Shown: positions 2 through 63,239 of the stretch, piece by piece
Layout: each line of letters begins with the position of its first letter
Position numbering within the stretch: position 1 is the first letter of the stretch
Origin: Marinilabiliales bacterium
GTDB lineage: Bacteria; Bacteroidota; Bacteroidia; Bacteroidales; ML635J-15
Direction of reading: 5' to 3'
Assembly: GCA_002869385.1 (NCBI GenBank)
Contig: PKTB01000007.1
Location: forward strand, 80,729-144,728
DNA: 64,000 nucleotides
Position numbers and translations under genes: made by a program
The notes under the pieces: generated by a model
What the model saw: the letters and a program-made list of their open reading frames with translations, nothing else
Told to the model about the DNA's origin: nothing
The model's database searches: none

Positions 2-652
2 AGCTGGTCAAATAGTATGAGTACAGACAGCATATTTAACTTGAGTAGTGGCACGTATTAGGTTACAGTATCGGAAGCAGGCGGTTGCTTTGCAACAGGG
101 ATATATACTATTACTGAGCCAGATTCATTATCTCTTTCAGAGACAATAACAGATGTGAGCTGTACTGGGAATAATGACGGACAGATATTAATAAATATTG
201 TTGGAGGGACGTTTCCTTATTCATTAGTTTGGAGTACAGATACTGCACAGACAGATACATTGTGTTCAAATCTTGTTGCAGGAGATTATACTCTTACTCT
301 TACTGACGGCTTGGGGTGTGTTAAATCCAAAACATATACAGTATTGGATGGTGTTATTGCCTGTGGTTAAAATGACTTACTAATACCAACAGTATTTACA
401 CCCAATAACGATGGAGTGAATGATAATTGGGAATTGCAAGGAATAGGTGGTTACACAGATGTGCAAATTGCTATATATAATCGCTCAGTGGAACTTGTTT
501 ATGAGTATTCGGGAAGTGGGATTGGTTATGATACTGATAGATGGGACGGCAAATTTAACGGAAAAAAATTGCCAATGAGTTCATACATTTTTGCTGTTGA
601 CCTGAAAGATAATACGGAAATTATTAAGGGGATTGTGTCGATAAAGTATTAA
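2..652 (+). CDS. 3' end of a large T9SS adhesin with SprB-type repeats and a type-B (CHU_C / gliding-motility) C-terminal sorting domain. The frame is interrupted by TAG 59-61 and TAA 368-370.
   Basis: Frame 2 is open from the window edge to TAA 650-652 except for the two stops. It shows SprB-repeat signatures (GTY*VTVSEAGGC, ITDVSCTGNNDGQI...LVAGDYTLTLTDGLGC). These are followed by the type-B CTD signature PTVFTPNNDGVNDNWEL...IYNRSVELVY...RWDGKFNGKKLPMSSYIF. The gene continues upstream of the window. Confidence 0.75.
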
Positions 653-840
653 GGTACCACGGTACCACACGATGAAATCGTGCGGTAGCTGGGAAATCGC
701 GCGGTAGCGGTGTCCTTCGGCCCTTCGACCCTTCGACTTCGCTCAGGGACCGAAAGCTCAGGGACCGAAAGCTCAGGAACCTAAAGACGCGCGGTAGCGA
801 GGACGTGGGCACCACACGATGAAATCGTGCGGTAGCATCA
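652..840. repeat. Composite GC-rich intergenic element. Two near-identical 29-bp hairpin units flank short tandem repeats.
   Basis: GGTACCACACGATGAAATCGTGCGGTAGC at 661-689 recurs at 808-836 with one change. Between them lie CCCTTCGA-type 8-mers and CTCAGGGACCGAAAG x3 (15-bp period). GC content is far above the flanking DNA. Confidence 0.9.
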
Positions 841-869
841 AGAGTTAAAAAAGTTTAAAAACGAAAAAT

Positions 870-1778
870 ATGAAAAAAATATTTACATGTCTTGTTTTGT
901 TGATTGTTGCACAGCAGTATGTTGTTTGCCAACAGACGCCATTATATAGTCAATATATGATGAATGAGTATTTAATAAATCCTGGCATAACCGGGAGTTT
1001 AAATGCAATTCCAATAAGACTGCAAGCTCGTCAACAATGGACTGGTGTGAAAGGAGCTCCTTCAACACAAATAATCAGTGCACATAGTTTGCTTAATCCT
1101 GAAATGGGTGTTGGCGGATATATTTTTAAAGATAAATTTGGGCCAATAAGTAGTACTGGTGTCCAAGCAACATATGCATATCATCTGAAAATCAATCAAA
1201 ATGTTAAACTTGGTCTTGGTGTTGGATTCGCTTTGTTTCAGTTTCAATTTGACGAGAGAGATCTTATTTCGATTGAGGAAAACGATAATGTTTTGACAGG
1301 TGGAGTGGAAAGCAGATTGGTTCCTGACGCAAATATTGGAGCTTATTTGTATTCTGAGAAATACTTTGCAGGGTTATCTATACTTCAAATACTTCAGAAC
1401 TCGATTGGTTTTGAAAATCAGACAGACGGGGCAATAACACTATCGCGTCAATATTATTTGTATGGTGGATATAAGTTTGAACTAAATGCCAATTTTTATC
1501 TCCAAGCTTCAATTCTGCTAAAAGTGGTAGCAGAATCTCCTTTTGAACCGGATATCAATTTAAAGGCTTTTTACAAAAAAAACTATTGGCTTGGATTAAG
1601 TTATCGTTCGGATGACTCATTTGTAACAATGTTGGGGATAAAATATCAGAAATATTATTTTGGTTATTCTGTTGGTTTTTCTTTCAGTACACTTAAGAAT
1701 TATACACATGGATGCCATGAAATTGTAATTGGAATCGACATTCCAAATAAAGTTCTAAAGAGTAAGAGTAGTTATTAG
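870..1778 (+). CDS. PorP/SprF-family type IX secretion system outer-membrane protein
   Basis: It has a signal peptide and then the QQTPLYSQYMMNEYLINPGITGS motif typical of PorP/SprF. The rest is beta-barrel-like alternating sequence. It lies directly downstream of a type-B CTD adhesin, which is the usual pairing. Confidence 0.8.
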   Translation: MKKIFTCLVLLIVAQQYVVCQQTPLYSQYMMNEYLINPGITGSLNAIPIRLQARQQWTGVKGAPSTQIISAHSLLNPEMGVGGYIFKDKFGPISSTGVQATYAYHLKINQNVKLGLGVGFALFQFQFDERDLISIEENDNVLTGGVESRLVPDANIGAYLYSEKYFAGLSILQILQNSIGFENQTDGAITLSRQYYLYGGYKFELNANFYLQASILLKVVAESPFEPDINLKAFYKKNYWLGLSYRSDDSFVTMLGIKYQKYYFGYSVGFSFSTLKNYTHGCHEIVIGIDIPNKVLKSKSSY

Positions 1779-1809
1779 TCAAATTAAGTGTAATTAAGAA
1801 TCAAGACCA

Positions 1810-7654: not shown

Positions 7655-7707
7655 GCCGGAAACCCACGCGTTCAGGGAAACCCACGCGTTTGGAAACGCG
7701 CGGGAAC
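7655..7707. repeat. GC-rich hairpin element of the same family as 652-840
   Basis: GGAAACCCACGCGTT occurs twice in tandem. It is followed by the hairpin CCCACGCGTTT-GG-AAACGCGCGGG (7681-7704). The element lies just upstream of the C10 peptidase start. Confidence 0.8.
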
Positions 7708-7753
7708 GGTGAGGTAAATAGCTCCTGGTTACACAATTGTGATTTTTCATTTA

Positions 7754-9169
7754 CTATAATTTTATTATTGGTTGAGTTTTTAAAATGGTTCCATTATTTT
7801 CAATAACAATGAATATCAATCCAGAACTAAGCTGAGACAAGTCTATCATTTGCTCCCCAGTAGTGTGTGGATTAATTTTCAAGTCCATATATAATAATCC
7901 TATATTGTTGAATATTTTTATATTTAAAGTTTCATATGAATTGTCATTGAATTTAATGAAGAGTTTATCATTTGTAGGATTTGGGAATATTTCAATATTG
8001 TAATACTCATTGTCAGTAACAGAGATAATCTTTGATAAATAGAATTCACCATCATAATCAACATTTCTAAGCCTGTAATACAGATAATTATTTGCAGGAA
8101 AAACAGGAGAATAATCTGTAAGAGAATAGAATTGAGTTGTTATTGAATTTCCTTTAGAGTCAACAATGCCAACCACATCAAAATCAATAGAATTATAAGA
8201 TCTCTGAACTTCAAAATAATCAGTATTTAACTCTGATGCAGTTATCCAGGAAAGCAACACATTGTCGTTTTTGTATATTCCGTTAAAATCGAGTAGTGTA
8301 ACCTGTAATGGTGAAGATTCATCTGAAATAGTCCATTTGCTGAAATGTGTTGTGTTTACACTAATTGTTCGAGGATCTGAAGATGAAACATCTTGGGTCG
8401 AACCAATTTGTTCCCAGACGGAATAAGGAGATTCGCTACTCCATATAACAGCGCTGACTGGGTCTTTAGCATTATCAAATTCTGAGAGCCATGAGAATTG
8501 CAAACTACGTCCATTATCAGGAGAAAAATCACTTTCGATTATCCAAGATGCAGATATGGAAGTGTTACTTCCACTTGTAATAATACCTTCTGTTCCATTG
8601 ATTCTAGTAATGGTAAGATTGCCGATGTCATCAGTTCCGCTACTTATCATGCAACCTAAAAAGTCGATTGAATTTGTTCCTATATAACGGCTAGTCATTA
8701 ATGCTTTACCAACTATATAGCTTGTAGATGTTTCTGAAGGAGTTGAAGCTCCAGTATTGAAATATAGAGTATTTAATGTTTCGGGTGTTGAGGAATTATG
8801 TGTGTGTACAATACCGTCTGAAAAAACGAATGAGTTATTAATAGTAATGTCATTAGATAAATATATTCCGGACGGATTATTTATTTCGGCATCATAAAAG
8901 GTAAAAGGACAGGTAGAACTTAGTATGTCCTGGGAGCTACTCCCGTTAAATAATATTTTGGAATTGTTTCTTGATGTAAAAATATTATTATTAATCAGAT
9001 TGTCTTTTATTTTTAAAATGCCTGAAACGTCAATTGTGCCATTATTCTCTATGATACCAGTACTCTGGATAGCGCTGTTTTGCAGAAGGGTTAAATTAGT
9101 TGAAGGAGTAATGAGTATTTGTCCAGATACAGATAAAGAAATGTAAAGAAAAATTAATACTGTGCTCAC
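7754..9169 (-). CDS. T9SS-sorted surface protein of unknown function, paralog of 57049-58317
   Basis: It shares blocks with the paralog (LNTLYFNTGAS, SSRY(I/L)GTN, FSKWT(I/V)SD). Its CTD is IEIFPNPTNDKLFIKF...GLIFIVIE. Confidence 0.6.
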   Translation of the reverse strand: MSTVLIFLYISLSVSGQILITPSTNLTLLQNSAIQSTGIIENNGTIDVSGILKIKDNLINNNIFTSRNNSKILFNGSSSQDILSSTCPFTFYDAEINNPSGIYLSNDITINNSFVFSDGIVHTHNSSTPETLNTLYFNTGASTPSETSTSYIVGKALMTSRYIGTNSIDFLGCMISSGTDDIGNLTITRINGTEGIITSGSNTSISASWIIESDFSPDNGRSLQFSWLSEFDNAKDPVSAVIWSSESPYSVWEQIGSTQDVSSSDPRTISVNTTHFSKWTISDESSPLQVTLLDFNGIYKNDNVLLSWITASELNTDYFEVQRSYNSIDFDVVGIVDSKGNSITTQFYSLTDYSPVFPANNYLYYRLRNVDYDGEFYLSKIISVTDNEYYNIEIFPNPTNDKLFIKFNDNSYETLNIKIFNNIGLLYMDLKINPHTTGEQMIDLSQLSSGLIFIVIENNGTILKTQPIIKL

Positions 9170-9272
9170 GCGAGTAACTCGCGCGCGAGTTTTCGCCTTG
9201 GTCCTTTGACTACCCTCTTCGACTACCCCTTCGACTACCCCTTCGACTACCCCTTCGACTACGCTCAGGACT
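9165..9272. repeat. GC-rich element: palindrome CGCGAGTAACTCGCG plus a 12-13-bp tandem repeat
   Basis: The palindrome lies at 9169-9183. GACTACCCCTTC-type units occur x4 (9208-9260) and end in GACTACGCTCAGGAC. The TTCGAC..GCTCAGG core is the same as at 721-750, 52084 and 62843. Confidence 0.85.
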
Positions 9273-9512
9273 ATATGCTAAAAACGCAATCGAAAGCAAT
9301 GCCTTGATATTGCATGATGATAGAAATTTGCATTAACAATAATTGGTGCACAAATAGTACTTTTAATGCAATAGAGAGGTTGTACTAAGGGTGGCATAAA
9401 ATAAATTGATAAAAAGCCACCACACTTGGTTCCTTTTCGCTGATTTGCAGCTCTTTACATTTTATTTTTTGAACCATAATTACTAATTTTAATATTAAAG
9501 AAAATTTGAATT

Positions 9513-10736
9513 ATGGAAAAAAGAACAACACTAAATTTATTGTTTTATGTTAGAAAAACAAGATTGCTAAAAAATGGGGAAGCTCCTGTTTATATGCGAA
9601 TTACAGTTAACGGAGTTAGAAAAGATTTAGCACTAAATCAAGGGATTAATCCAAAATTGTGGGATTCTGTTAAAGGAAAAGCAAGTGGTAATTCAAAAAA
9701 CGCTCGTTCATTAAATTTGTATTTTGAAAGCATTAGAGTGCAGTTGCGTCAACACATGATAAATATGAGAGAGGAAAACATTCCAATTACTGCATTGACA
9801 TTAAAAAATAGATTTCAGGGAAAATCAACAAACGCAAAATACCTTATTGAAATGTTTAAAGAACATAATGAGAATATTCAAAAGCTTTCAGGAATTGATT
9901 TTGCACCCAATACAATAAGTAAATACAAAACAACACTGTTTTACACACAACTTTTTCTAAAATTGAAGTACAAATGTGATGATATAAATATAAAAGATGT
10001 AAATCATACATTTTTAACCAACTATGAATATTATCTCAAAACTGAAAGAAAATGTTCCCACAATACCGCAATGCGATATATCAAAGATCTTAGAAAGATT
10101 GTTAGAATTGCTCTTTCAAATGGATGGATTGGTAAAGACCCATTTGCAAATTATAAAATAAAATTTCATAAGGTTGACAGAGGTTTTCTAACTGAAGATG
10201 AATTACATGCTATTATAAATAAAACATTTACCATAAATCGATTAGAACAAGTTAAAGATTGTTTTTTATTTTCTTGTTTTACCGGATTGGCACATATAGA
10301 TTTAAAAAGATTAACACCTCAACATATTTTTAAAGATTCAAATAATAAATTATGGCTAAAAGTAAATCGTAAGAAAACAAACAGCTTATGCAGTGTTCCA
10401 TTATTACCAGTTGCTTTACAATTGATAGAGAAATATGAAAACAATCCATATTGTGTTGAAAATAATTTGTTATTACCTGTTCTTTCCAATCAATCGATGA
10501 ACGCATATCTAAAAGAGATTGCAGATATTTGCGGAATAACAAAAAGGCTTTCAAGCCACTTGGCAAGACACACATTTGCCACAACTATTACTCTTAATAA
10601 TGATGTCCCAATAGAAACTGTTAGCAAAATGCTTGGGCATTCTTCAATTAGTGTCACAAAAATATATGCCAGACTCCTAGACAAAAAAGTTGGTCGGGAT
10701 ATGCAACATCTTAATGATAAATTTACTTTATCTTAA
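9513..10736 (+). CDS. Tyrosine site-specific integrase of the Bacteroidota mobile-element type, with an N-terminal arm-binding domain
   Basis: The protein is 407 aa. The N-terminus LNLLFYVRKTRLLKNGEAPVYMRITVNG is typical of Bacteroidota integrases. Catalytic motifs are HLARHTFATT and LGHSSISVTKIYARL. Confidence 0.85.
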   Translation: MEKRTTLNLLFYVRKTRLLKNGEAPVYMRITVNGVRKDLALNQGINPKLWDSVKGKASGNSKNARSLNLYFESIRVQLRQHMINMREENIPITALTLKNRFQGKSTNAKYLIEMFKEHNENIQKLSGIDFAPNTISKYKTTLFYTQLFLKLKYKCDDINIKDVNHTFLTNYEYYLKTERKCSHNTAMRYIKDLRKIVRIALSNGWIGKDPFANYKIKFHKVDRGFLTEDELHAIINKTFTINRLEQVKDCFLFSCFTGLAHIDLKRLTPQHIFKDSNNKLWLKVNRKKTNSLCSVPLLPVALQLIEKYENNPYCVENNLLLPVLSNQSMNAYLKEIADICGITKRLSSHLARHTFATTITLNNDVPIETVSKMLGHSSISVTKIYARLLDKKVGRDMQHLNDKFTLS

Positions 10737-10765
10737 AACTTGCTAACTATCTATTCAATATTGTA

Positions 10766-10786
10766 GGGACTTTATGTCCCTTTTAT
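10766..10786 (+). terminator. Hairpin plus T-tract after the integrase gene
   Basis: GGGAC-TTTAT-GTCCC is followed by TTTTATT. The 10-mer ACTTTATGTC recurs at 11664-11673 in the first array spacer. Confidence 0.5.
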
Positions 10787-10994
10787 TATAAAACTTTTTG
10801 TTAAGTTTAGTAGAACAAGATGTGTGTAATCGTTAGAACTATGCAAAGTCTTCATTTTGAAGACTTCTTAAGAGTCATGGCTACAACCTTTGTGCAAATT
10901 ACTACCGTTTCAAATGGTTATATAATATGCTATTGTGGGTACTTTGAAACCAGAATTATTTATGTCTGTATTCCTTGGCTATTATATCAATATT

Positions 10995-11462
10995 TTACTG
11001 AAGTGCAATTCCCATTTTCATTTTTTCCTCATTAGAAAAACTTATTTCTTTTTCACATTTATAATATGCAACTAGATAGCTAATTGAAGGATGGTAATAT
11101 GTCTTATCAATAGTCTTGTCATTGTTTTTAGTTTCTGCATAAATCAATTTTCCATTATTAATGTAATAGTTAGTCGTTTCATTTTTATTTTCGTCCCTTA
11201 ACTGTACAATTTTAATTTCTTTTTCTTTTTTAAATACACATTGATTTATATTGCTAGTTTGAATTTTACTATTTATCAAGTTATCTGTTTCACATATTAT
11301 TTTGCGATAAGTATACCTTTCATTTTGTATTTCTAACACAATGTTATCTATCAAATCTATCAACTGTTCTTTACTTTGACTTTGCAATTCTGTATTTTGC
11401 CCAAATACACTTGTTATTGGTGATACAAATATTACAAATGCAAATAAAAATAGCTTTTTCAT
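10995..11462 (-). CDS. Hypothetical secreted protein (array block 1)
   Basis: It has a signal peptide (MKKLFLFAFVIFVSPITSVFGQ). No family was recognised. Confidence 0.45.
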   Translation of the reverse strand: MKKLFLFAFVIFVSPITSVFGQNTELQSQSKEQLIDLIDNIVLEIQNERYTYRKIICETDNLINSKIQTSNINQCVFKKEKEIKIVQLRDENKNETTNYYINNGKLIYAETKNNDKTIDKTYYHPSISYLVAYYKCEKEISFSNEEKMKMGIALQ

Positions 11463-11761
11463 AGTTTATATAGTTTGGTCTTAGTATAATTAACGCAATT
11501 TTAGTTATATTATTATCTAGGAACGTAGATGCAATATATCACTTGTAATAGAAATTCAAACTCACTAGATTCTAATCACATTTTTATTTAACGATGAACG
11601 AAAGTTAGACGACTAAACGTTACGATCTTTCTCAAATGGTAAATAGGTGTTGTTCCTACTGGACACTTTATGTCTCAGTAAAAAATGAACTATCATTGGA
11701 ATTTTTTTGCTGATAATTGAATTGAGTCTAAATTGTCAAACTTCAAACTAAATAAATATTG

Positions 11762-12229
11762 CTATAAAGACTTTGGCCTATATTTTTTCAAATATTCATC
11801 TAGCTTTAAGATTAACTTTAAATTAAGTCTCTTAAGTTTTTTTTCGTTTTTCTCATTCTGTATTTTTTTTGAAATCGTGTGTATCTTATAAATTTCATTA
11901 TAAATTTCAGGATAATTTGTTCCACCAATATCGTAAGTTGTGTATGAATATGTGGAAGCATCATAAATTGCCATTTCTTGTCCAACGTACTCTGCATTAG
12001 AATGGATAAACCATAAAATGTTTGAACATTCCTTCTCAAGTTCTGAAAGGTGCTCAACGTCCTCAATATCAATAGTCTTATAATTATTATAATTCTCTGA
12101 TAAGAAAACATAAAATTTATTTAAATCTGTTTTAGAAATGAGAGTATCTTGATTAAGTGATTTTGCGTCATTTTGAGCAAAAAGACACAATGTTGACATT
12201 GTAAATAGTAGTGTTATTACATGTTTCAT
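11762..12229 (-). CDS. Hypothetical secreted protein (array block 2)
   Basis: It has a signal peptide (MKHVITLLFTMSTLCLFAQ). No family was recognised. Confidence 0.45.
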   Translation of the reverse strand: MKHVITLLFTMSTLCLFAQNDAKSLNQDTLISKTDLNKFYVFLSENYNNYKTIDIEDVEHLSELEKECSNILWFIHSNAEYVGQEMAIYDASTYSYTTYDIGGTNYPEIYNEIYKIHTISKKIQNEKNEKKLKRLNLKLILKLDEYLKKYRPKSL

Positions 12230-12359
12230 AATATATGTTTTTAGTTTTTTTATCTCTAATAAGGGTCTTCAATTTTCTTTACGTATTTTATTATTTATTG
12301 TTGGGTAGTTTCAAAGAAATAACATTTGGAATTGCAAAGCTTTTCAGCCGGGCTGTTTT

Positions 12360-49976: not shown

Positions 49977-51131
49977 TTACGAAAAATTAAATTTATCTCC
50001 GACTTCTATTGAATTCCAATCTTCTTCTCTTATTGTAACTAAAAAGTTAAAATTCTTTTTTGATGATAATTCCATTAGAATATTTATCCATTCTTTATTC
50101 CCAGGCTCCACATCAATATAGATAGTTATTGGAAATCTAATTCCTTTTGAAATTCCTTCGAGTGAATTTATTACATTATAAATTGTTGTTATGTTTTCTG
50201 GTAAATGTTTTAATTCATAAACAGTTGTTTCTGAGCAATTTTCTTTTAAAAATCTATATGCCAAAGTACTTTTACCTTGCCCAGAAGCACCATGAATAAA
50301 AACTATATTAGAACTGTTAAATTTCTTTCTTATTAAATTCAATTTATCAATTCTGACAACATCAACATCTGCTAATATATGTTTGTAGGTAGCTGAAATA
50401 CCTTTATAAAAATCTTGTTTTAAAAGATCAATATTTTCTTCCTGTATGTTATTGTCTAACAATTGAATAAGATAATTAAATGTTTTGCTGAAGCTAATTC
50501 TTTCCCTTTGATATTTACATATTTTTTCGAATTGCCCCTTAAAGTCTTTGGGTAATATTTGTATTTGTCTTTCTGCTGAATAATAAATCCAATAAATAAG
50601 AAGATCAAAGGTCATTTCAAAATCTACTAAGCACCCCCATTTATCAAGGCTTAAAAGGATTTCTTTTTTTATTTCTTGTTCGCTAACAATTTCATATTTA
50701 AAATGTCCTTTTATGACTTCTATTTCTTTTTTATTAAGTCCTTGCTTTTTTAATTTGTCAATGAGCCCTGCAGAATAATTCGAATTTGTAAGGTTTTTAA
50801 CATCATCATTAATTTCTCCAAATGATACTAACTTAATAATTGGGTTATATCCTTCATTGTATGCTTCTATTGCCCTTCTAAGAAAGGTGTTCTCTTTTCT
50901 TGTAGTTACAACATCCGATAAAGTAATTACTTTTCCTAGATGCTTAACTTGAATTATTTCTTCAACATCATTGTTGTGGTTATATATATCTATATCTTCA
51001 AATCTACCTTCTGGATGAAACTTATATTCAGACTCATTGTAAGTAAGTATTCGATATAGTGTATACAGAAATTGTACTCTATATCCTTTCAAAGCACTGA
51101 TTGCACCAAGATTATTTGATAGATTAGTCAT
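49977..51131 (-). CDS. STAND-like giant frame, segment 1 of 4: DUF4297/Cap4-type nuclease domain plus P-loop NTPase
   Basis: The N-terminal region is ALKGYRVQFLYTLYRIL...HPEGRFEDIDIYNHNNDVEEIIQVKH, a PD-(D/E)xK-like E-D...Q-x-K pattern seen in DUF4297. The Walker A motif is FIHGASGQGKSTLAYRFL. Confidence 0.7.
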   Translation of the reverse strand: MTNLSNNLGAISALKGYRVQFLYTLYRILTYNESEYKFHPEGRFEDIDIYNHNNDVEEIIQVKHLGKVITLSDVVTTRKENTFLRRAIEAYNEGYNPIIKLVSFGEINDDVKNLTNSNYSAGLIDKLKKQGLNKKEIEVIKGHFKYEIVSEQEIKKEILLSLDKWGCLVDFEMTFDLLIYWIYYSAERQIQILPKDFKGQFEKICKYQRERISFSKTFNYLIQLLDNNIQEENIDLLKQDFYKGISATYKHILADVDVVRIDKLNLIRKKFNSSNIVFIHGASGQGKSTLAYRFLKENCSETTVYELKHLPENITTIYNVINSLEGISKGIRFPITIYIDVEPGNKEWINILMELSSKKNFNFLVTIREEDWNSIEVGDKFNFS

Positions 51132-51303
51132 ATAGCATTATTTTTCAAGCATTGCATTTTCAATAAAGTATGATTACATGAAATAGGTTCACCACCCATT
51201 TAAAATTTATTGTTTTTAAGTAAATATGTCATTTTCAAATCTAAATAAAAAGTATTTCGCACAAAAAGAATAAACTTTTTATTAACCACATTTATCTTAA
51301 ACA

Positions 51304-51486
51304 CTATTTAATTCTTTTTACCTGTATTAAAAGCTGTATCCTCAGCCTCTTTTTGCCAGGGTTCATGGCAAGTAATTCATCACGTATTAGGGCATTCATG
51401 TGTAAACCTTAAGTGTTAGTCTCACAATAATCGGCTTGTTTCTGAAGAGTATATTTTGACAATATATGTATAAAATAATAACACAT
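51304..51486 (-). pseudogene. Second DUF4248-like HTH gene with an in-frame TAA at 51409-51411
   Basis: The translation is MCYYFIHILSKYTLQKQADYCETNT*GLHMNALIRDELLAMNPGKKRLRIQLLIQVKRIK. It aligns along its length with the 43666-43848 product. It is too short for the ORF track. Confidence 0.45.
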
Positions 51487-51561
51487 TTAATACGATCAAT
51501 ACACAAATAAACTTTATTTGGAATAATGTAGATGCTTAGGTAAAGTATGATAAAAAAAATC

Positions 51562-51812
51562 TAATAAAAACTTTTTTTTCGAAAATCCACCTACTACTTA
51601 CTATCTTCAAGTTAATGTGTTGTTATTCAATGATGTAAGTTCTGTAGTAAGTCAAAATTATTCTTACTCATCTTACTATTTTTCGTTTTTTTTTATTTTG
51701 TTGTAACTTGTAGTAGAATAAAAATATTAAGTTACTACACAAATATTCTTTATTTTCAATACTTATAGAGGTTTGTAGTAATGTAGTAAGTGGATTTAGT
51801 GTTTTTTGCAAA
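51562..51812. repeat. About 250-bp direct repeat, copy B
   Basis: It has the same termini and order of conserved blocks as 43963-44216: AATAAAAACTTTTTTTTCGAAAATCCACCTACTACTTACT ... TTTTGTTGTAACTTGTAGTAG ... TATTTTCAATACTTATAG ... TGTAGTAATGTAGTAAGTGGATTTAGTGTTTTTTGCAAAA. Confidence 0.85.
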
Positions 51813-52083
51813 AAAATAAAAGAAAATACATCATATATTGAATTCATTAAAATCAAATTCCAAAAACCTTCAACAAAAGCACATAAAATATTATATAAAT
51901 ATTCATGTCAGAATTCTTGTATTTATTTGCTCTATTTTGTACATTTGTAATGTAATTGCAAAGTGATGCAATTAGGTTCATTTATATCATGTAAAGTATT
52001 GTACATCGCAAGTTGCCAATTCGGTGGCATTGTAAATTTAGAGTTCTATAAGTATTGCAGTAGAGGAGCTTTAAAATTATTTT

Positions 52084-52238
52084 CGACTACGCTCAGGGAC
52101 CGGCTCAGGGACCGGCTCAGGGACCGGCTCAGGGATTGGCTCAGAGACCAGCTCAGTGTGGTAGGGCAAGTAGAGGTACCACACGATAGAATTCCCGATA
52201 AAACGGGATAGACTGTGCGGTAGCGGCGGTAGCGGTGA
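52084..52238. repeat. GC-rich element: 12-bp tandem repeat plus a hairpin unit
   Basis: CGACTACGCTCAGGGACC is followed by GGCTCAGGGACC x3 and degenerate copies. After that comes GGTACCACACGATAG...CTGTGCGGTAGCGGCGGTAGCGG. Confidence 0.85.
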
Positions 52239-54721: not shown

Positions 54722-57043
54722 TTATTTTATCATTATTTTTCCTGTGTAAACAAGGTCATCGCTGATCAATTTTAACAGATATATTCCGTGGTTAATTTGC
54801 TGTTTTTCAATTTGTATCTCATTTCCAGTAACATTAAATGTTTTTCTTATGATAGTCCCTTTTATATCACTTAAAGTTAGTATAAAGCTTTTGTTTTCAG
54901 GGTTGTAGAACTTTACGGTAGTAGTTTCATTAAAAGGATTAGGGTAAATAAATAATTTATGCTCTGTATTATTTTCAGATACATTAGAGGAATTATTAAT
55001 AAAACAACTGTTGTTAACGATGTTACTAAAAGACATATTACCGTTAAAATTATCAGGATTGTTTTTGCGGATACCAATCATGTAAAAATAAACAGAATCT
55101 ACATTATAATCATTAAAAGTGTTGATGAAACCCCAAACAGAATCATGCAGAACCATAGTTTCCGGTGATGCCCCTCTGTAGATGTAATATTTTGTAGGGG
55201 AGTAAACACCTGTCTGGTCAATGTACTCTTCCCAGCCTAGACACATAATGTCATCAAATGCATCCATGTTCAATTTTATAGTTTTATGGAAATCGGACAA
55301 TCCTGATTCATTACCACAAGAGTCCACTACTGTAATTTTATATTTATCACTATGTAAATTGGGGTGGGAAATAAGATCTGTGAATTCACCCGGATGTGAG
55401 GGACTGACATTGCCTGCTTGTATGTATATGTCAGGCTCTGCTTCCTTATAAATTATATATAGCATTGTACCAACATCATTTGTTTTTTTCCAATAAATTT
55501 TGTTTTTCATAATGGAAGTATCAACAGTTACGAGGCATACCTGCTCATTTTGATAAGGCTGTTGTACGAAAACGTTTACCTGATCTGATGATGTGCAGCC
55601 TAATTGGTCGGTTACCGTTACCGTGTAATTTGTTGTTACCGAAGGATTTGCAATAGTGTTAGCCTGAATTGTGGTTGAAAGACTTGTTGGGGGAGACCAT
55701 AAATAGCTAAAACTTCCTGATTCGACAGTGTAATTGCTTATGCAGCTAGCATTTAGTTTAGCAGTTTGACCTGGGCATAAGTTATCTACAGAACCTATGT
55801 TTGCATCGAGCTGAATAACTTTTAATTTAGCAGTATCGCTGGTGACAGAACGGCAAAGGTTGGTTACTTCGCAGGTGAAATTTCCCTGGTCTGTTAAGTT
55901 CAGGTTGTCTATTGTATAGATGCTATCTGTAGCCCCCGGGATATCAATACCGTTTTTTTGCCACTGGTAAATTACGGGGGATGTGCCTTCGGTTGTTACT
56001 GAAAATGTAACATCATTTCCCGAACATTTATTTTGAGTATTTGACTGTATAATTATATTTACTGAAATAGGATTATTTACAACAGTTGAGTACAAATATG
56101 TTTTAGCACTAAAATCATATGGAGTAAATGACCTCATACAGCGAACTCTTGAATTGGAATATCTTGGTGTGTTAGCAATCAAGGTCTGATAATATATGTT
56201 ACTTGTCGCAACAATCGCACGTTGGGGGTTATTGCAGGATGCGCTATTAGTGGAAGAAGTCCAGTAAAGTTTTGACATATCAGTATATCCTCCTTCATAA
56301 TCTGTTGAATGTATTTCTGTAAGATGGGAAGTGGGGTCGTTAAGTATAGGTATGTATTGAGCGATTGACGGTAAATACCAGTCGCTATATCCATTTAAGA
56401 TAAGATCATCACAAATACTTGCTGCAATTGGTCTTGTGTTGCAATTTGTTAATATTGTTGAAGTATTAACAGCCCCGTCAGTATCAGTTACATAAAACAC
56501 GAGATTGTCGCAGCCCCATTCCATGCTATCGCTTTGATCGTTTAATGGGATTACTTCTCCATAACCAGTACTGTCGGATATTGTTGTTAGACCACCATGA
56601 AACCAATCGCCTACAGACACTTGTGTTGTGTTTGTAATTATTTTTTGTTTCAAAACGCTACCATACCAGGAAGAATTTTCACAAAGAGCAGTATTTGTAA
56701 TTTCAGCCCTGTAGAACCATTTACCTGTAGGACTATCAGGGGTTAAAAACTCGTAAGTTGTAGCTGTCGCGTCATCAATATTAATCCAATTAATACTGTC
56801 GGAACTTTGTTGCCATTGGATCGTTCCATTTTGTCCACTTACATTTAAGACTATTGTGTCGCCAGCAAAACTTGCATACCATCCTGTTTGGGCAATTGTA
56901 TTTAGGCTAATAATCAGTACAAAAATAAGAAGTAGAAAGTTTTTTAATGGAACCACACAATTAAATCGTGCGGTAGCATTGAGGAGTTCGTAGTTCGAAT
57001 CTGCTGATGCAGAAAATTTTGATATTTTAGTCATATTTTTCAT
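54722..57043 (-). CDS. T9SS-sorted surface protein with a DUF1566-like region, an Ig-like domain and a CTD
   Basis: The DUF1566-like part is MEWGCDN...SICDDLILNGYSDWYLPSIAQ...LYWTSS...RVRCMRSF. It also has an Ig-like domain, and the CTD is LFIYPNPFNETTTVKF...GIYLLKLI. The start is uncertain: an in-frame GTG at 56956-56958 directly precedes the signal peptide. Confidence 0.7.
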   Translation of the reverse strand: MKNMTKISKFSASADSNYELLNATARFNCVVPLKNFLLLIFVLIISLNTIAQTGWYASFAGDTIVLNVSGQNGTIQWQQSSDSINWINIDDATATTYEFLTPDSPTGKWFYRAEITNTALCENSSWYGSVLKQKIITNTTQVSVGDWFHGGLTTISDSTGYGEVIPLNDQSDSMEWGCDNLVFYVTDTDGAVNTSTILTNCNTRPIAASICDDLILNGYSDWYLPSIAQYIPILNDPTSHLTEIHSTDYEGGYTDMSKLYWTSSTNSASCNNPQRAIVATSNIYYQTLIANTPRYSNSRVRCMRSFTPYDFSAKTYLYSTVVNNPISVNIIIQSNTQNKCSGNDVTFSVTTEGTSPVIYQWQKNGIDIPGATDSIYTIDNLNLTDQGNFTCEVTNLCRSVTSDTAKLKVIQLDANIGSVDNLCPGQTAKLNASCISNYTVESGSFSYLWSPPTSLSTTIQANTIANPSVTTNYTVTVTDQLGCTSSDQVNVFVQQPYQNEQVCLVTVDTSIMKNKIYWKKTNDVGTMLYIIYKEAEPDIYIQAGNVSPSHPGEFTDLISHPNLHSDKYKITVVDSCGNESGLSDFHKTIKLNMDAFDDIMCLGWEEYIDQTGVYSPTKYYIYRGASPETMVLHDSVWGFINTFNDYNVDSVYFYMIGIRKNNPDNFNGNMSFSNIVNNSCFINNSSNVSENNTEHKLFIYPNPFNETTTVKFYNPENKSFILTLSDIKGTIIRKTFNVTGNEIQIEKQQINHGIYLLKLISDDLVYTGKIMIK

Positions 57044-57048: not shown

Positions 57049-58317
57049 TTAATAGGTTTTAATTATTTTTTTTATTGAAATAGGATTGTTATCCTTGATA
57101 ATACTTAGAAAATAAACTGAAGGGTTGTAAAACTTCATGTCTATCAAAGTTTCATTGTTCTTTATAAAGCCACTGTCAATAATTTTTAAATTGGCATCAG
57201 TTAATATGTATTTATAGTAAACATTGCTTTTGTTGTTGTCTATTTTTATTATTAAATAATTAGTAACAGGATTAGGGAAAACTGAGATATTGTTGTTATC
57301 AAAAGTTGAAAGTTGTAATGGGATAGAATTATCAGACACCGTCCATTTGCCAAATAATGTGGTATTTACAGCAATGTTTCTAGGATTAGAGGCAGAAACA
57401 TCCTGAATTTCACCGATTTCGCTCCATGTTTCATAAGGGGCTGTACTTGTCCAGGCAATGGCATTTGTTACATCAATTTCATTATCAAGACCGGCAAACC
57501 ATGAAAATTGTATCTCGCGTCCGCTTAAAGGTTCATTGTTGCTTGTTATTGTCCAATTTGAAGCAATAGAAGAGTTTTCTACGGTAATAATGCTTTCGGG
57601 GCCGGTAATACGGGTAATTTCGATATTACCTATATCATCTGACCCATTACTGATATTACATCCAAGAAAGGCGAGAGCATTCGTTCCCAAGTAACGGCTG
57701 CTCATTACAGTTTCCCCGAGAATATAAGCAGAGGATATTTCTGTAGGGTCGGATGCCCCGGTATTAAAATACAGCGTGTTAAGAATTTGAGGAGAAGCCG
57801 AATTAAAAGTATTAACATTGCCATTAGATAATGCAAACGAATTGTTAATATAAACATCCGATGATAAATAAACGCCAAAAGGATTATTTAGTTCTGCATC
57901 GTAAAACAAAAGCGGGTCAGTATTACTCTCAAGGCTTTGCGGCGTATTACGGCTGAAAATGATTTTTGAATTGTTATTAGATGTAAAATCTGAAGTATTA
58001 AGCAAATCGCCTTTTGTAATTATTGTGCCGTGGTTGTTTATAGCACCATTATTATTAATAAAATCAGAGCTTACTAGTTGTGCGTTTTGTAATATGTCAA
58101 ACGTGGTAGATGGGCTAATGCTTAGTTGAGCTTGTACGGAAAAGTTAAGTAAAGCGAAAAGAAGTAATAGGATTAAACTGTGTGCCCACGCAAGTAACTC
58201 GCGCGGGAGAGCTGAGCTGACAATGGTACCACACGATACAATCGTGCGGTAGCGATAATGGTACCACACGATACAATCGTGCGGTAGCGATGATGGAATA
58301 TTAAAAAGTTTTTTCAT
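57049..58317 (-). CDS. T9SS-sorted surface protein, paralog of 7754-9169. GC-rich repeat elements are embedded in-frame in its signal-peptide region.
   Basis: It shares blocks with 7754-9169. The CTD is ISVFPNPVTNYLIIKI...SVYFLSII. The N-terminus reads MKKLFNI-[40 repeat-encoded codons]-LILLLLFALLNFSVQAQ. Confidence 0.6.
   Translation of the reverse strand: MKKLFNIPSSLPHDCIVWYHYRYRTIVSCGTIVSSALPRELLAWAHSLILLLLFALLNFSVQAQLSISPSTTFDILQNAQLVSSDFINNNGAINNHGTIITKGDLLNTSDFTSNNNSKIIFSRNTPQSLESNTDPLLFYDAELNNPFGVYLSSDVYINNSFALSNGNVNTFNSASPQILNTLYFNTGASDPTEISSAYILGETVMSSRYLGTNALAFLGCNISNGSDDIGNIEITRITGPESIITVENSSIASNWTITSNNEPLSGREIQFSWFAGLDNEIDVTNAIAWTSTAPYETWSEIGEIQDVSASNPRNIAVNTTLFGKWTVSDNSIPLQLSTFDNNNISVFPNPVTNYLIIKIDNNKSNVYYKYILTDANLKIIDSGFIKNNETLIDMKFYNPSVYFLSIIKDNNPISIKKIIKTY
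58177..58296. repeat. GC-rich hairpin elements lying inside the 5' end of ORF 57049-58317
   Basis: The hairpin CCCACGCAAG-TAA-CTCGCGCGGG lies at 58185-58207. Two tandem 35-bp copies of AATGGTACCACACGATACAATCGTGCGGTAGCGAT span 58222-58291. Confidence 0.85.
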
Positions 58318-59241: not shown

Positions 59242-61074
59242 TTAGTCTGTAATTATTAGTTTTTGTTTTTTTACTAATTTGGAATCTTTAGACACTAACA
59301 GAAAATATGTTCCTGAAGAAATATCTTTATTAAAAGTCAATTTTGTTTTACCTTCGGGGATATTACCGACAAACAAGGTTCTAATTTTTTGTCCATTGAT
59401 GTTATATAAAGTAATTTCAAAGCTTGCAAGTTGATCGTTTTGAATATTGACAAACCAAGAATCGTTACAAGGGTTTGGGAAAACACTTATATTATTATCA
59501 GCATTATTATTTAAATCGATTGAAACTGTGGCATAATTTATTTCTGCAATCCAAGTATCGAGACAGTGGTGAGTAGAACCTGAAAATAGTTTTTCATTTC
59601 CAAAGCAACCTGCAAGCCAGACCGTTGGGGATTCTGCATTATGCTTTCTTGCAATGCCAGTATATGCACCCCAAGGAGCAAGTCCATCAGATTCACCAAA
59701 ATCAACGTAAGAGTTCCAAGATTTTACTGTTACAGGATTTGACCAATTGAGTTGGTCATCACAGGATACTGCCATTAGTTCTGGTAAAATGTCGGGACTG
59801 GATCTTAAAAATGAAATAGCGACAGTTTTGTCATTAGAAGAAGATGTGAAAGAAGCAAGAGAGGGATAGGAACAGCTAGAATTCTCCAAACTAAAAACGG
59901 AAGATATATTTGTGAGAGTAGCTAAATTAAGGCGATTATAATTAATAGAGTTATTCCCTGAATCATCCTGATCAGAACTGAAAACATAATGGATAAACCC
60001 ATCAAGAAAAAATGCACTTAAGATTCTACAATCTCCATTGTTAAGGTAAACATCAGATTGAGCCTGAGAAACGCTGTCGGCTATGAAGAATTCAGGAACC
60101 TCAATTGAATTGATTTCAAAAGAAGGATTATTAAGCATATTATCAGTGAGGTGGTATAAGCTAACGGTAAAATTATTTAATACATGAGCTACGAAAAACA
60201 TACCAGGGCCATAATTACCTAACGCGCCATAAGAAGCGGGAACAATTGTAAAAGGTTTGTCGTCAATGTAATAGTAATAATTAAGGATAATATCGTCTCC
60301 ACTGTAACCATTTATTTTAAGGATTTGTAAAATTATTGATTGGTCAAAATTTCCTGAATCTTTATGCAAATTACCTGTTATAAAAATCTCATCAGTTGAA
60401 ACACCAATTCTAGGGAAAAGTAATCTTGTGTTGTTTTCCAAAAGATCACCAGGTATGACATAAACATTCCATTCGTCTAAAGGGTTGTTTGTGGTTGAGA
60501 AACAAATGACAATTTTTGCATTTTCGGCAACATAGCCATGAATAGCGGTAAAAACAAATCTGTCAGAACCGGAATCATATAAAACAACTGGGTCGTGCAG
60601 AGTAGAAGTTATATCGGGGTGATCAATAAAACTATTTAAAGATGTTGACAAAAAACAATTCCCAAAACTGTTATAAATGCAAATATTAGAATTTGCGAGA
60701 CTTACTATATATCCATCATTAGAAATAGCTAAAGAATTTTGAGCTGGAGAGTAGCCGTTGAAATAATTAGCTTCGAAGTTAGCACCTACAGTTAAAGATG
60801 TAGATGATTCTTTGGTGCCAATGGAGCCACGCGTCTGAAGACGCGCGGCAGAGAGAGATTTGTCAGAGGTGTTATAGTTATGTTGAATACTATTAAAATT
60901 TTCTTCAAATTTTGCAGTTTTGCCAATAGAGCAAAAAGATAAAACACCTGATTTTATTGCTGCATTGTGTTTTGATGGAGCTGTAAGATTTACTTTAGTT
61001 TCTTGTGCATTTGAAATAAGTATAGAAATAAAACATGAGGTAAAAAGAATAGATTTTAGAATTTTAGTTTTCAT
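59242..61074 (-). CDS. T9SS-sorted protein of unknown function
   Basis: It has a signal peptide. The CTD is ISVFPNPCNDSWFVNI...GTYFLLVS. A copy of the GC-rich hairpin motif lies in-frame at 60836-60859. Confidence 0.5.
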   Translation of the reverse strand: MKTKILKSILFTSCFISILISNAQETKVNLTAPSKHNAAIKSGVLSFCSIGKTAKFEENFNSIQHNYNTSDKSLSAARLQTRGSIGTKESSTSLTVGANFEANYFNGYSPAQNSLAISNDGYIVSLANSNICIYNSFGNCFLSTSLNSFIDHPDITSTLHDPVVLYDSGSDRFVFTAIHGYVAENAKIVICFSTTNNPLDEWNVYVIPGDLLENNTRLLFPRIGVSTDEIFITGNLHKDSGNFDQSIILQILKINGYSGDDIILNYYYYIDDKPFTIVPASYGALGNYGPGMFFVAHVLNNFTVSLYHLTDNMLNNPSFEINSIEVPEFFIADSVSQAQSDVYLNNGDCRILSAFFLDGFIHYVFSSDQDDSGNNSINYNRLNLATLTNISSVFSLENSSCSYPSLASFTSSSNDKTVAISFLRSSPDILPELMAVSCDDQLNWSNPVTVKSWNSYVDFGESDGLAPWGAYTGIARKHNAESPTVWLAGCFGNEKLFSGSTHHCLDTWIAEINYATVSIDLNNNADNNISVFPNPCNDSWFVNIQNDQLASFEITLYNINGQKIRTLFVGNIPEGKTKLTFNKDISSGTYFLLVSKDSKLVKKQKLIITD

Positions 61075-61106
61075 TTTAATGATTTTTAAGTTATTATCAA
61101 ATTATT

Positions 61107-62741
61107 TTAATCTTTACAATGTATGTAATAAAATGTAATAGGTGAATACTCCTTAATTTCTGACAACTGAACACTACCATAGCCCCCTATTGAATAAATT
61201 TTATTATTACAACGAACAACGCCATGTCGATATCTCGCAGTAATCTTTGCTAGATTCGGGAAGCCAACATACCATGTGTTTGTTTCGGGGGAATAAGCAT
61301 CGTTTAACTCAACTGATGTTGAACCACCTATAAGGAATATGAGCCCATTAACTTCAGCAGCTCCGAAACGTGTTCGTGAAGAAGGGATGCTTGCTTTAGT
61401 AGTCCATGTGTCTGTAGCGGGGTCATATTCTTCGTTGGACGTATTATTAAAAACATAAATTTTATTATTATATGCAACGGCAGCCCCATATTGCATTGAT
61501 GCTAAAGAACTTGATTTTATATTCCAAGTGTTTGAGACAGGGTCATATTCATAACAAGCCTTTCCATCTGTACCTGCTCCGAAAACGTAAATTTTATCAT
61601 TTACTACAGCAGAGCAAATCCCCATCTTTGCTCCAGGCATGGGTTGTTTTGTAGTCCAAGTGTCTGTAGCGGGGTCATATTCTTCATTGACTGCAGATTC
61701 AGTGTAAACATAAGTATAGGTATAAGTGACTATGCAGCCTCCAATAGCATATATTTTTCCATTTGCTGACGATGAGGTAAGTTTTATTCTTGCTGTTGGC
61801 ATAGTTGTTTTACTCTGCCAATTGTCTGAAGAAGGGTCATATTTGCGATTCAGATTGCTTGCATATTGAGAACCATTAAAACAACCCCCAACAAGGTATA
61901 TGTTCCCATTTAGCTCTGCGACCGCATGGTCATAAACAGTTCCAGACATTGAAGCTTTTGTTGTCCAATAATTATTAATTGTTGAATAATCGCCAGAATA
62001 GGAATATCCTGCAGGTGGCGTTATTGAGTTGCTAGTGATACAGGTGTTTGTAGGAATGCCAAAATTGCCAAGTTGTCCAAGTATTTGAAAGTTAGAGCCA
62101 TCAAAAATAATTGAAACGTACTGACCGTTTAAGATATAGTTTGTTTCAAGAGCATAACTATAATTCTTTTTAATAGCAATGTTTCCTAAAGAATTTATAT
62201 TTATTGAAGCAGACCCTGAGTTTGAAAAAGTTGCTTTGAAATGAATAATCATGCCGGGAGTATATTCTGTAAGGGCAGGATCCAGATTTACGACATAAGC
62301 ATTGTCAGAACCAGATGCGACAGAATAAATCAAAGAGTTTTTTTGAATTGTGGCAGCATTTACGGCATCTGCTGATGCTGTGGGTGCAGCAAGGTTGTTA
62401 ATTTTAAAGCTATACATATTGAGATTCATTTGAGCAATATGAGAACCGAGATTATCAGAAACGCATTTCCAATCAGGAGAAGTAGGCAAGCCGTAGTTGT
62501 AATAAAATCCTTTTTCTACATCTGTTTGAAAAACCATTAGCCCGTGAGCAGGATTGCTAATTGCATTTCGTTCTGTCTCAGACATTCTTGGGATAAGAAT
62601 ACCTTTGTCTGTGGATTTAACATCAAGCATTGATGAAGGGTCGGGGGTTTCGCCAGAAGTGCTAATTCCAACCTGAGGATACAAATTGTTATAAGTAAAA
62701 AGAATTAATAACAATAATGAAATAAAGCTAATTTTTTTCAT
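61107..62741 (-). CDS. Secreted Kelch-repeat (beta-propeller) protein
   Basis: It has repeated blades (NGNIYLVGG, NGKIYAIGG, NDKIYVFG, NNKIYVF, NGLIFLIGG, NNKIYSIGG) with W/Y spacing typical of Kelch motifs. Confidence 0.6.
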   Translation of the reverse strand: MKKISFISLLLLILFTYNNLYPQVGISTSGETPDPSSMLDVKSTDKGILIPRMSETERNAISNPAHGLMVFQTDVEKGFYYNYGLPTSPDWKCVSDNLGSHIAQMNLNMYSFKINNLAAPTASADAVNAATIQKNSLIYSVASGSDNAYVVNLDPALTEYTPGMIIHFKATFSNSGSASININSLGNIAIKKNYSYALETNYILNGQYVSIIFDGSNFQILGQLGNFGIPTNTCITSNSITPPAGYSYSGDYSTINNYWTTKASMSGTVYDHAVAELNGNIYLVGGCFNGSQYASNLNRKYDPSSDNWQSKTTMPTARIKLTSSSANGKIYAIGGCIVTYTYTYVYTESAVNEEYDPATDTWTTKQPMPGAKMGICSAVVNDKIYVFGAGTDGKACYEYDPVSNTWNIKSSSLASMQYGAAVAYNNKIYVFNNTSNEEYDPATDTWTTKASIPSSRTRFGAAEVNGLIFLIGGSTSVELNDAYSPETNTWYVGFPNLAKITARYRHGVVRCNNKIYSIGGYGSVQLSEIKEYSPITFYYIHCKD

Positions 62742-62842
62742 AGTTAAAAGTTTTAAATTATATTTTAATGTAAAGGTATGTCAGAAAAGAAGGATAGAGC
62801 AAGGGGAGTATGTATAAGTTGATAAATTGAACCACAATACAT

Positions 62843-62983
62843 GCTTCGACAAGCTCAGCAACCGTGCTTCGACAAGCTCAGCAACCGTGCTTCGACAAGC
62901 TCAGCAACCGTGCTTCGACAAGCCAGCAACCGTGTTTCGACCCTTCGATCCTTCGACAAGCCAGGAACTGAAGCTCAGGGATC
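62843..62983. repeat. 23-bp tandem repeat plus degenerate TTCGAC units (GC-rich element family)
   Basis: GCTTCGACAAGCTCAGCAACCGT occurs x3 perfectly (62843-62911), followed by a 22-bp copy. The array then continues GTTTCGACCCTTCGATCCTTCGACAAGCC...GCTCAGGGATC. Confidence 0.9.
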
Positions 62984-63239
62984 AATAGTACACCTTAGGT
63001 TCGTAGGTTTGCTTATGAGGATTAATACCACGAAGGCACGAAGGCAGTACTGTATATGAAGGAAAAGGAAGCAGCTTAGAAATAATGAATACTGAGAAAC
63101 GCAGAGCTGAGAAATGTCACGCAAAGACGAAGAGAAGAAAAATGTCACGCAAAGGCGCAAAGATGCAAAGAGGAAATGTGAGGACTGGCTTGTTCCACTT
63201 CATCAAATCGTGTTGAAACAATGAGTCGCATTGATGGGA

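Follow-up and report, generated by a model that had tools for sequence, protein, structure and literature searches.

The window examined here, 64,000 nt of contig C5 (C5:80729-144728) in the 28-contig, 4.25-Mb assembly of a Marinilabiliales bacterium, contains eight short loci that stand out as GC-rich islands (~55-70% GC, an estimate made by reading the sequence) in a genome of ~32% GC. They combine a small hairpin, Module 1, with short tandem repeats, Module 2, and the original prediction took them for one dispersed family of composite elements comparable to the repetitive extragenic palindromes (REPs) and bacterial interspersed mosaic elements (BIMEs) that are handled by REP-associated tyrosine transposases (RAYTs). 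The question raised by these loci is whether the two modules belong together, and with which enzymes each is associated. The single family was rejected in favour of two, one for each module, and the islands are very probably mosaics of two unrelated nuclease-associated repeats: a REP of the type known as subclass 2.6, and a motif linked to small GIY-YIG nuclease genes.

All eight copies (652-840, 7655-7707, 9165-9272, 52084-52238, 56951-56973, 58177-58296, 60836-60859 and 62843-62983) were found in the sequence. The hairpin pattern CCACRCG-N7-8-CGYGCGG and the Module 2 core TTCGAC-N2-3-GCTCAG each occur six times in the window, always on the plus strand, against an expectation of 0.00 in 100 dinucleotide-preserving shuffles. 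Tandem Repeats Finder (TRF) reproduced the Module 2 periods reported to differ by locus, with 8 bp at 714-737 and 62936-62957, 15 bp at 741-786, 12 bp at 9203-9262 and 52091-52156, and 23 bp at 62842-62941; a 35-bp period at 58222-58296 corresponds to a REP doublet. As the element at 652-840 has an identical copy in a JGI contig, and an independent Logan contig agrees with it from within the Module 2 array onward, it is not an assembly artefact. Rfam returned nothing at gathering score for the whole window, and nothing at E <= 1 for positions 500-9400 and 52000-63300.

Module 1 and its RAYT gene

Module 1 is a hairpin of ~30 nt, ...CCAC(A/G)CG-stem-loop-stem-CG(T/C)GCGG-N-AGC, referred to below as REP-1. 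A covariance model (R1) was built from 14 aligned copies and used for a census with a cut-off of E<1e-3. The A.C mismatch said to occur in every copy is present in all 14 aligned copies and, phylum-wide, in 125 of 126 distinct copies. Among these 126, stem pair 10-50 covaries (A-U in 68, G-C in 57), and 88% of cells are paired, compared with 17-47% after sliding the 3' partners; the pairing score of the hairpin alignment was reached by none of 500 shuffles. The 3' flank, G-N-A-G-C, is nearly invariant and the 5' flank is unconserved. The suggestion that the minus strand, with its G.T pair, is the active one found no support, since the conserved trait is the mismatch rather than a wobble, and on C5 the lagging-strand template is probably the plus strand.

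The proposal that a RAYT-type Y1 transposase handles such hairpins was right for Module 1. The window lacks a RAYT gene, as had been stated, and the gene was located by genome search on contig C18. RAYT-1 is a 184-aa open reading frame (ORF) on the minus strand at C18:669359-669913, and is the sole copy associated with this hairpin in the genome. It matches NCBIfam NF047646 (REP_Tyr_transpos, 'REP-associated tyrosine transposase') with 86.7 bits, above the cut-off of 80, and Pfam Y1_Tnp (PF01797) at 1.4e-10. A PDB search with the single RAYT-1 sequence gave no match and a profile was required; the best match to a 13-orthologue profile was the E. coli TnpA-REP structure 4ER8 (4e-6), with the HUH and Tyr motifs aligned, and H60, H62 and Y145 are invariant in the orthologue alignment. 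RAYT-1 carries NHVH, FWQH, YVHNNP (consensus YIHNNP) and a downstream YSSA, with an HuH-Y spacing of 85, while TnpA-Y1 subclass 2.6 is characterised by NH[LIV]H, WQ, YIH[QN]NP, a downstream SS, a length of ~179 aa and an HuH-Y spacing of ~82 (Table 1, PMC6006769). By this comparison of motifs and length, RAYT-1 appears to belong to subclass 2.6, which is RAYT group 5 of Bertels et al. 2017 (PMC5581495). Members of the subclass are mostly found in Bacteroidetes, together with 'atypical secondary structures' that lack a 5' GT[AG]G (Quentin et al. 2018, PMC6006769).

Nine R1 matches bracket RAYT-1, two to its left on the minus strand (C18:669079-669300) and seven to its right on the plus strand (C18:670005-670427). 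The latter form seven tandem 65-bp units directly upstream of the gene, each made of REP-1 and a near-identical 38-bp AT-rich spacer. The possibility that this array is a CRISPR (clustered regularly interspaced short palindromic repeat) locus was rejected, since the 38-bp 'spacers' hardly vary from unit to unit and the RAYT gene adjoins; the array is CRISPR-like in its period only and is a plain tandem repeat. The same arrangement extends across the Bacteroidota: ~80 orthologous loci, including those of Kordia, Flavobacterium, Pedobacter, Saccharicrinis and many metagenome-assembled genomes, contain 242 R1 matches, typically one immediately 5' of the gene on the minus strand and one on the plus strand directly following the stop codon. 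Among 40 relatives, RAYT orthologues of 71% identity or more occur only in the two genomes richest in this REP (G017 with 32 matches and G001 with 20). Remoter RAYTs (40-47% identity), three other RAYT-like genes of this genome among them, are flanked by other hairpins.

Four more Y1_Tnp genes were seen in this genome, each with its own hairpin type (C18:351957-352508, C18:688400-688960, C18:543348-543935 and C24:51130-51576). That at C18:688400-688960 is broken by a TAA stop, and next to the hairpins of the one at C18:351957 lie short tandem arrays (aaacgctccttatc x3 and cgcgcttgaacgt x4). Hairpins of these additional genes are dispersed on both strands in about 15 and 14 copies.

The RAYT-1 locus resembles a REPtron (PMC6006769, PMC5581495) in that a single-copy Y1 HUH gene lies within cognate inverted hairpins, the hairpin also occurs elsewhere in the genome, and the hairpin changes together with the gene from lineage to lineage; PMC6006769 also reports REPs inserted in frame within genes, as found in the window. 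It differs in its 3' G-N-A-G-C foot, in the invariant A.C mismatch, in loops that carry a foreign motif, and in that its dispersed copies number only ~21, are direct and lie on one strand of one 97-kb region with no inverted doublets.

Module 2 and small GIY-YIG nuclease genes

Two simple identities were tried for Module 2 and rejected. Neither strand folds better than shuffled sequence (z -0.3 to +1.7), which ruled out a second hairpin, and a tRNA fragment was discarded on inspection, as only TTCGA is shared. The strict form, CTTCGAC-N2-3-GCTCAGSRAC, is present in 14 of 41 relatives, while the reversed control gave 0; the 14 include genomes with no REP-1 match, with five units in G011, three in G012 and four in G031. 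The idea that Module 2 is part of a RAYT/REP system was therefore abandoned, as it occurs in many relatives without the REP and flanks small GIY-YIG genes instead.

The link to these genes was first seen in the relative G014, in which the exact Module 2 variant brackets a 100-codon GIY-YIG gene. A relaxed pattern, CTTCGA[CTG]-N2-4-[GCA]CTCAG, with a background of 7 per Mb, was then counted on the gene strand within 300-350 nt of such genes. Among 14 loci of the genus it lies upstream in nine and on both sides in eight, and it was found at 17 of 27 further loci in an order-wide sample of 200 genomes. In total, 26 of the 41 nuclease loci have the motif, with 84 matches in 122 kb; control loci gave two matches in 258 kb for RAYT genes and one in 70 kb for integrase genes, the latter being an island junction within the window. 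The motif is thus ~90-fold enriched at GIY-YIG genes relative to RAYT loci. Its variants (GAG..CCTCAG, GAC-NN-, GAC-NNN- and GAC-N4-) cluster on the nuclease tree, requiring 15 changes compared with a shuffled mean of 22, and none of 200 shuffles was as low. The tree departs from host taxonomy, with one genus scattered among clades with other families, which suggests that the cassette moves horizontally. At some nuclease loci two half-motifs surround an inner hairpin within a short outer stem. The protein is placed by Pfam GIY-YIG, and its best solved relatives are the UPF0213 proteins 1ZG2 and 1YWL.

Further observations were made on the units in relatives and elsewhere in this genome. At C325:3100-3950 in G014, the unit of Module 2, an inverted-arm array and the GIY-YIG gene is tandemly duplicated, and the second gene copy begins at the end of the locus. 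In G012, G003 and G020, solo Module 2 units lie between GGCG and CGCC, as if inserted in a hairpin loop, amid many tiny GGCGAAGCC / GCCGAAGGC hairpins and repeats of the word 'gaaac'. In the present genome, a solo unit at C1:304880-304960 is bounded by an 11-bp direct repeat (CCGATGACGGA), which may be a target duplication or part of the surrounding tandem words. The two nuclease genes of this genome are associated with the GAG variant, whose 15 copies are dispersed on both strands, with none on C5. A search for remnants of RAYT or GIY-YIG genes on C5 found none.

The closest published parallel to this arrangement is Ssn, the single-strand GIY-YIG nucleases (cd10448) that are accompanied by NTS or Ssn-related motifs (SRM) (Chenal et al. 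2025, PMC11893778). Both have a GIY-YIG gene that is small and encodes a single domain, with its own oriented repeat on both sides, solo copies, and lineage-specific variants. The core differs, being CTTCGAS...SCTCAG around a minimal or hairpin-bearing middle rather than CGTC-hairpin-CYRG, and the nuclease, a Pfam GIY-YIG protein, may differ as well, its PDB neighbours being UPF0213 structures.

An alternative is that the islands form one BIME-like family, in which Module 2 would be the linker or filler of the REP, co-amplified by RAYT or by slippage, and its proximity to GIY-YIG genes would reflect a shared intergenic 'vocabulary'. Such a family would fit the common region, strand and nesting of Module 2 and REP-1 in this genome, as well as the short tandem arrays that RAYT-2 on C18 likewise has by its hairpins and the runs of other short tandem words that surround the solo units of relatives. 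E. coli BIMEs (REP Y/Z and linkers, with amplified BIME-2) are similarly mosaics of REPs with short non-palindromic motifs, and show tandem reiteration of REP and flank comparable to the 35-bp doublet at 58222-58296 and the 65-bp unit repeated seven times by RAYT-1. Their REPs, however, alternate in orientation, whereas here they are head-to-tail and the 'linker' is an independent repeat family. As all REPs of this genome are direct and inverted doublets are absent, the elements fall outside a strict definition of the BIME, contrary to the original prediction. Head-to-tail clusters are rare or absent in most REP families (Di Nocera et al. 2013, PMC3733652), and inverted REP-1 doublets are present in the sister genomes G017, G001 and G009. 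We consider a single family unlikely, given the Module 2 units of REP-1-free genomes, the enrichment at GIY-YIG genes over RAYT loci, and the way in which the variants track the nuclease tree. Moreover, long-loop REP-1 copies of other genomes carry other inserts and never Module 2, which indicates that the REP/Module 2 chimera is specific to this genome.

Distribution, strand and a proposed mechanism

Genome-wide dispersal, which had been expected of the elements, was not observed: motif searches placed nearly all copies within C5:44.6-147.6 kb and at the RAYT locus. A genome-wide count of the hairpin tail, GCGGTAGC, likewise gave two clusters, at C5:33-139 kb and C18:669-670 kb. The R1 census comprised 19 copies within C5:44,654-141,584, all on the plus strand, nine at the RAYT locus and two elsewhere (C9:25216 and C24:179105), so that 19 of the 21 dispersed copies lie within 97 kb on one strand. 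Taken with Module 2, a stretch of ~100 kb, or 2.4% of the assembly, accommodates 19 of the 21 dispersed REP-1 copies and 12 of the 17 strict units of Module 2, every one of them on the plus strand regardless of gene orientation. Within C5:44600-51200, a ~250-bp unit (gtgtagaaacagtgttaaaggactttgatttaggctgatatcttgataaagga...) with two direct REP-1 copies occurs at least four times in 6.5 kb. Complete chromosomes with this REP have 5-14 copies each, mostly at RAYT genes.

The C5 region shows no compositional sign of foreign origin. Its block of type IX secretion system (T9SS) genes at 52462-62741 has no DNA match in 30 relatives, which indicates that the region is accessory; recent import from a REP-rich relative was discarded as an explanation, since the same block is unmatched in those genomes. 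GC skew of the C5 plus strand is positive outside the island, which would make this strand the lagging-strand template, the preferred substrate of IS200/IS605 enzymes (PMC6006769).

We prefer the reading of two nuclease-associated families, under which the following course of events is proposed. RAYT-1 and its bracketing inverted hairpins form a REPtron, and RAYT-1 is the partner of the dispersed REPs. By analogy with the biochemistry of IS200/IS605 and E. coli TnpA-REP, RAYT-1 would bind the folded single strand and cut and rejoin it at the foot. Copies would probably have been seeded on the lagging-strand template, giving one orientation per replichore. GAC-type Module 2 survives here as orphan units, and replication slippage of different sub-segments of the unit could have given the periods of 8, 12, 15 and 23 bp. 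Module 2 arrays occupy the loops of REPs or separate their halves, so that both modules act as a single composite, and an island with a tRNA-type integrase later entered one Module 2 unit.

Several observations weigh against this reading. For Module 1, the foot is 3' (G-N-A-G-C) and the canonical 5' GT[AG]G is absent; the foot mirrors the usual one, 5' GTAG. Inverted doublets (REPINs) are absent from this genome, although the REPIN is regarded as the unit that moves. Copies are few and not dispersed, and as 8 of the 19 C5 copies lie in the ~250-bp repeat unit, segmental duplication explains part of the REP count. The strand argument relies on a single region, and at the two copies on C9 and C24 the GC skew is slightly negative. 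For Module 2, the GAC variant present in the islands is represented by 17 strict units (12 on C5) but by no partner GIY-YIG gene in the assembly. The nuclease tree is weakly resolved (92 columns, 21 of 35 inner branches open). The published SRM pattern, HGTCWY..RNCYNB, has no match in the 41 GIY-YIG loci (122 kb), three in the whole genome and none in the window. Finally, no mobility event or empty site was observed; what was observed directly are the gene-repeat associations, the structure and its covariation, the distribution, and the nesting.

Architecture of the islands, the integrated element and neighbouring genes

The nesting can be followed at 652-840. A partial 5' duplication, GGTACCAC (653-668, +; sequence and TRF), precedes the REP-1 copy at 660..693 (+; core 665-685, foot TAGC at 686-689; R1 match C5:81388-81421, E 2.4e-10), and a half REP with 3' arm and foot but no 5' arm (AAATCGCGCGGTAGCG; 690..709, +) follows. 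The Module 2 array (714..785, +) consists of CCTTCGAC x3 with period 8 and then GCTCAGGGACCGAAA x3 with period 15 (TRF; pattern match 732-746), and is closed by a second half REP, again a 3' arm and foot (GACGCGCGGTAGCG; 786..799, +); both half REPs were recognised by reading the sequence. A further REP-1 copy at 807..840 (+; R1 E 7.1e-10) has a core at 812-832 identical to that at 665-685, and two full REPs thus bracket the whole. A PorP/SprF gene (870-1778; Pfam PorP_SprF 2.3e-74) lies 30 nt downstream.

The second locus is a REP-1 copy with a doubled 5' arm (GGAAACCCACGCGTT x2) at 7663..7711 (+; core 7682-7703; R1 C5:88405-88439, E 1e-7). At the third, a variant hairpin identified by eye, GCTCACGCGAGTAACTCGCGCGCGAG (9164..9189, +), keeps the A.C mismatch and has a second one; its sister copy is the weak R1 match at 58181-58214. 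It is followed by a Module 2 array of CCTTCGACTACC x4.9 with period 12 (9203..9273, +; TRF and pattern search), at whose end lies TTCGACTACGCTCAGG (9254-9269, +), the left copy of the 16-bp direct repeat that marks the island junction. The right copy (52082-52097) opens the Module 2 array at 52082..52156 (+), which continues with GCTCAGGGACCG x5.5, period 12 (TRF). In the adjoining REP-1 copy (52174..52235, +; R1 C5:132902-132956, E 0.003) the long loop forms a small hairpin of its own (tcccgataaaacggga), and the foot is doubled at 52217-52235 (+; GCGGTAGCG x2.1, TRF). Of the last loci, 56948..56981 (+; R1 E 3.8e-6) and 60822..60856 (+; R1 E 2.5e-7) are single REP-1 copies, while 58181..58292 (+) comprises three, the variant at 58181-58214 and the 35-bp tandem of 58224-57 and 58259-92 (TRF; R1 7.6e-11 and 8.2e-11). 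A possible decayed 5' arm and loop (GAACCACAATACA; 62829..62841, +), a weak resemblance seen on reading, abuts the final Module 2 array at 62842..62980 (+; TRF and pattern matches), which comprises TGCTTCGACAAGCTCAGCAACCG x4.4 with period 23, TTCGACCC x2.8 and a last unit GCCAGGAAC/GCTCAGGGA, and lies upstream of the Kelch-repeat gene 61107-62741 (-) (Pfam). Each period corresponds to a sub-segment of one ~23-nt unit (CCTTCGAC; CCTTCGACTACC; GCTCAGGGACCG with or without AAA) or to the entire unit. Beyond the window, complete REP-1 arm pairs enclose Module 2 arrays at C5:72510-72580 and C5:147549-147612. On the 3' side of the last array, positions 63029-63171 contain additional short word repeats (CACGAAGG x2.2, AAATGTCACGCAAAG...-type units x2 and ACGCAAAG x3), the longer words of which each occur only twice in the genome.

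Between the third and fourth loci lies an integrated island of 42.8 kb (9270..52081; Pfam and 16-bp direct repeat), which is outside the repeat family. Its interior has no REP and its GC skew is reversed. TTCGACTACGCTCAGG, at 9254 and 52082, is the longest exact repeat between the 180-nt attL stretch and the next 120 kb. A tyrosine integrase (9513-10736, +; Pfam Arm-DNA-bind_5 / SAM_5 / Phage_integrase) lies ~241 nt after the Module 2 unit. Most of the 18 paralogues and orthologues examined lie ~245 nt after the 3' end, or a fragment, of a tRNA or tmRNA, the clear exceptions being two distant relatives, and for a paralogue on C18 the copies of a 19-bp tRNA repeat lie 51 kb apart. The island has split one composite, because the two halves (hairpin and CCTTCGACTACC array; GCTCAGGGACCG array and REP) rejoin into the architecture of the other composites. 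This insertion is a single case.

The bounding of the island by TTCGACTACGCTCAGG, exactly at the position where this integrase family usually has a tRNA 3' end, could be taken to mean that Module 2 is an att-like site of tyrosine integrases and its arrays the scars of repeated integration and excision. We regard this as improbable, since it rests on one instance, most other integrase relatives examined lie at tRNA or tmRNA ends, the integrase loci (70 kb) yielded a single Module 2 match, that of this island, and no integrase lies near the other arrays. A more specific form of the two-family reading would accommodate the same junction. The motif is enclosed by REP-1 arms in this genome and by short GC stems (GGCG...CGCC, GGTGG...CCACC) in relatives. 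On this form of the reading, three layers of selfish DNA would be nested, the middle one being a nuclease-repeat system not described before. Tentatively, and with more doubt than belief, CTTCGAS-(N2-4 or inner hairpin)-SCTCAG could be the recognition core of UPF0213-type GIY-YIG nucleases, a sister group outside Ssn/SRM, which enters the loops of unrelated hairpins. A stem-closed TTCGA loop would resemble a tRNA T-arm and hence serve as attB for a tRNA-targeting integrase, which would explain the use of Module 2 by the island, and a REP with the motif in its loop, spread locally by RAYT, would give the one-strand, one-region pattern.

Most copies had been placed at the 5' ends of T9SS cargo genes. 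This holds within the window, where five of the eight loci lie at the 5' ends of T9SS-related genes, but not outside it, where the neighbours (an aldehyde dehydrogenase, a TPR-histidine kinase and a methyltransferase among them) are unrelated to T9SS; the tie is local, not general. It might suggest that the elements are transcribed cis-regulatory RNAs of T9SS cargo genes, as 5' leaders, attenuators or terminators, the more so as the mRNA of a minus-strand gene would hold the better-paired G.U version of the hairpin. Yet the orientation of the elements is constant whether the neighbouring gene is on the plus or minus strand, and copies lie upstream of, downstream of and within coding regions. 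With the unrelated neighbours elsewhere, the lack of any Rfam match even at E <= 1, and the same hairpin bracketing a RAYT gene in ~80 genomes, such a regulatory role is very improbable indeed.

Three REP loci (56948..56981, 58181..58292 and 60822..60856) lie inside mechanically predicted ORFs rather than upstream of them. In the T9SS cargo gene 59242-61074 (-), an intact signal peptide is followed by REP-encoded AARLQTRGS in frame, a conserved body and a T9SS sorting domain. When the protein is aligned with 13 homologues, this REP falls in a variable N-terminal linker; an empty site was sought there, but the homologues are only 35-45% identical and no clean gap was found in the linker. ORF 57049-58317 (-) reads MKKLFNI (codon 7), then 40 codons (~120 nt) from three REPs in frame, then LILLLLFALLNFSVQAQ, a split signal peptide in which the REPs precede the hydrophobic core. 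For the T9SS cargo ORF 54722-57043 (-; Por_Secre_tail), whose 5' end contains the REP at 56948..56981, an in-frame GTG inside the REP arm may be the real start. On its minus strand REP-1, as read, has a stop codon in no frame, so that only the length of an insert must fit. The Rickettsia palindromic elements reportedly described by Ogata and colleagues in 2000 are likewise in-frame palindromic repeats within coding genes that remain unbroken; here there are three cases only, all in the N-terminal or signal-peptide regions of T9SS cargo ORFs.

To our knowledge, REP/RAYT systems have been well studied in Proteobacteria and scarcely described in Bacteroidota. What is unusual here is a subclass 2.6 REPtron with a mirrored foot, spread over one strand of one region, and fused with an orphan GIY-YIG-associated motif. 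Together, the stem, the invariant A.C mismatch and the 3' G-N-A-G-C foot define the subclass 2.6 REP precisely and across the phylum, so that the recognition rules of the enzyme can be tested directly with oligonucleotides. The UPF0213-type GIY-YIG gene with CTTCGAS...SCTCAG is a second nuclease-repeat pair, similar in arrangement to Ssn/SRM; as the published SRM pattern misses it, the reach of such systems is probably underestimated. Annotators should expect these hairpins within ORFs and at the start codons of T9SS cargo genes. The layering of island in motif in REP loop, together with the confinement to one strand of a single accessory region, bears on how hairpin repeats choose their targets and on how the 5' ends of genes for surface and secreted proteins are reshaped.

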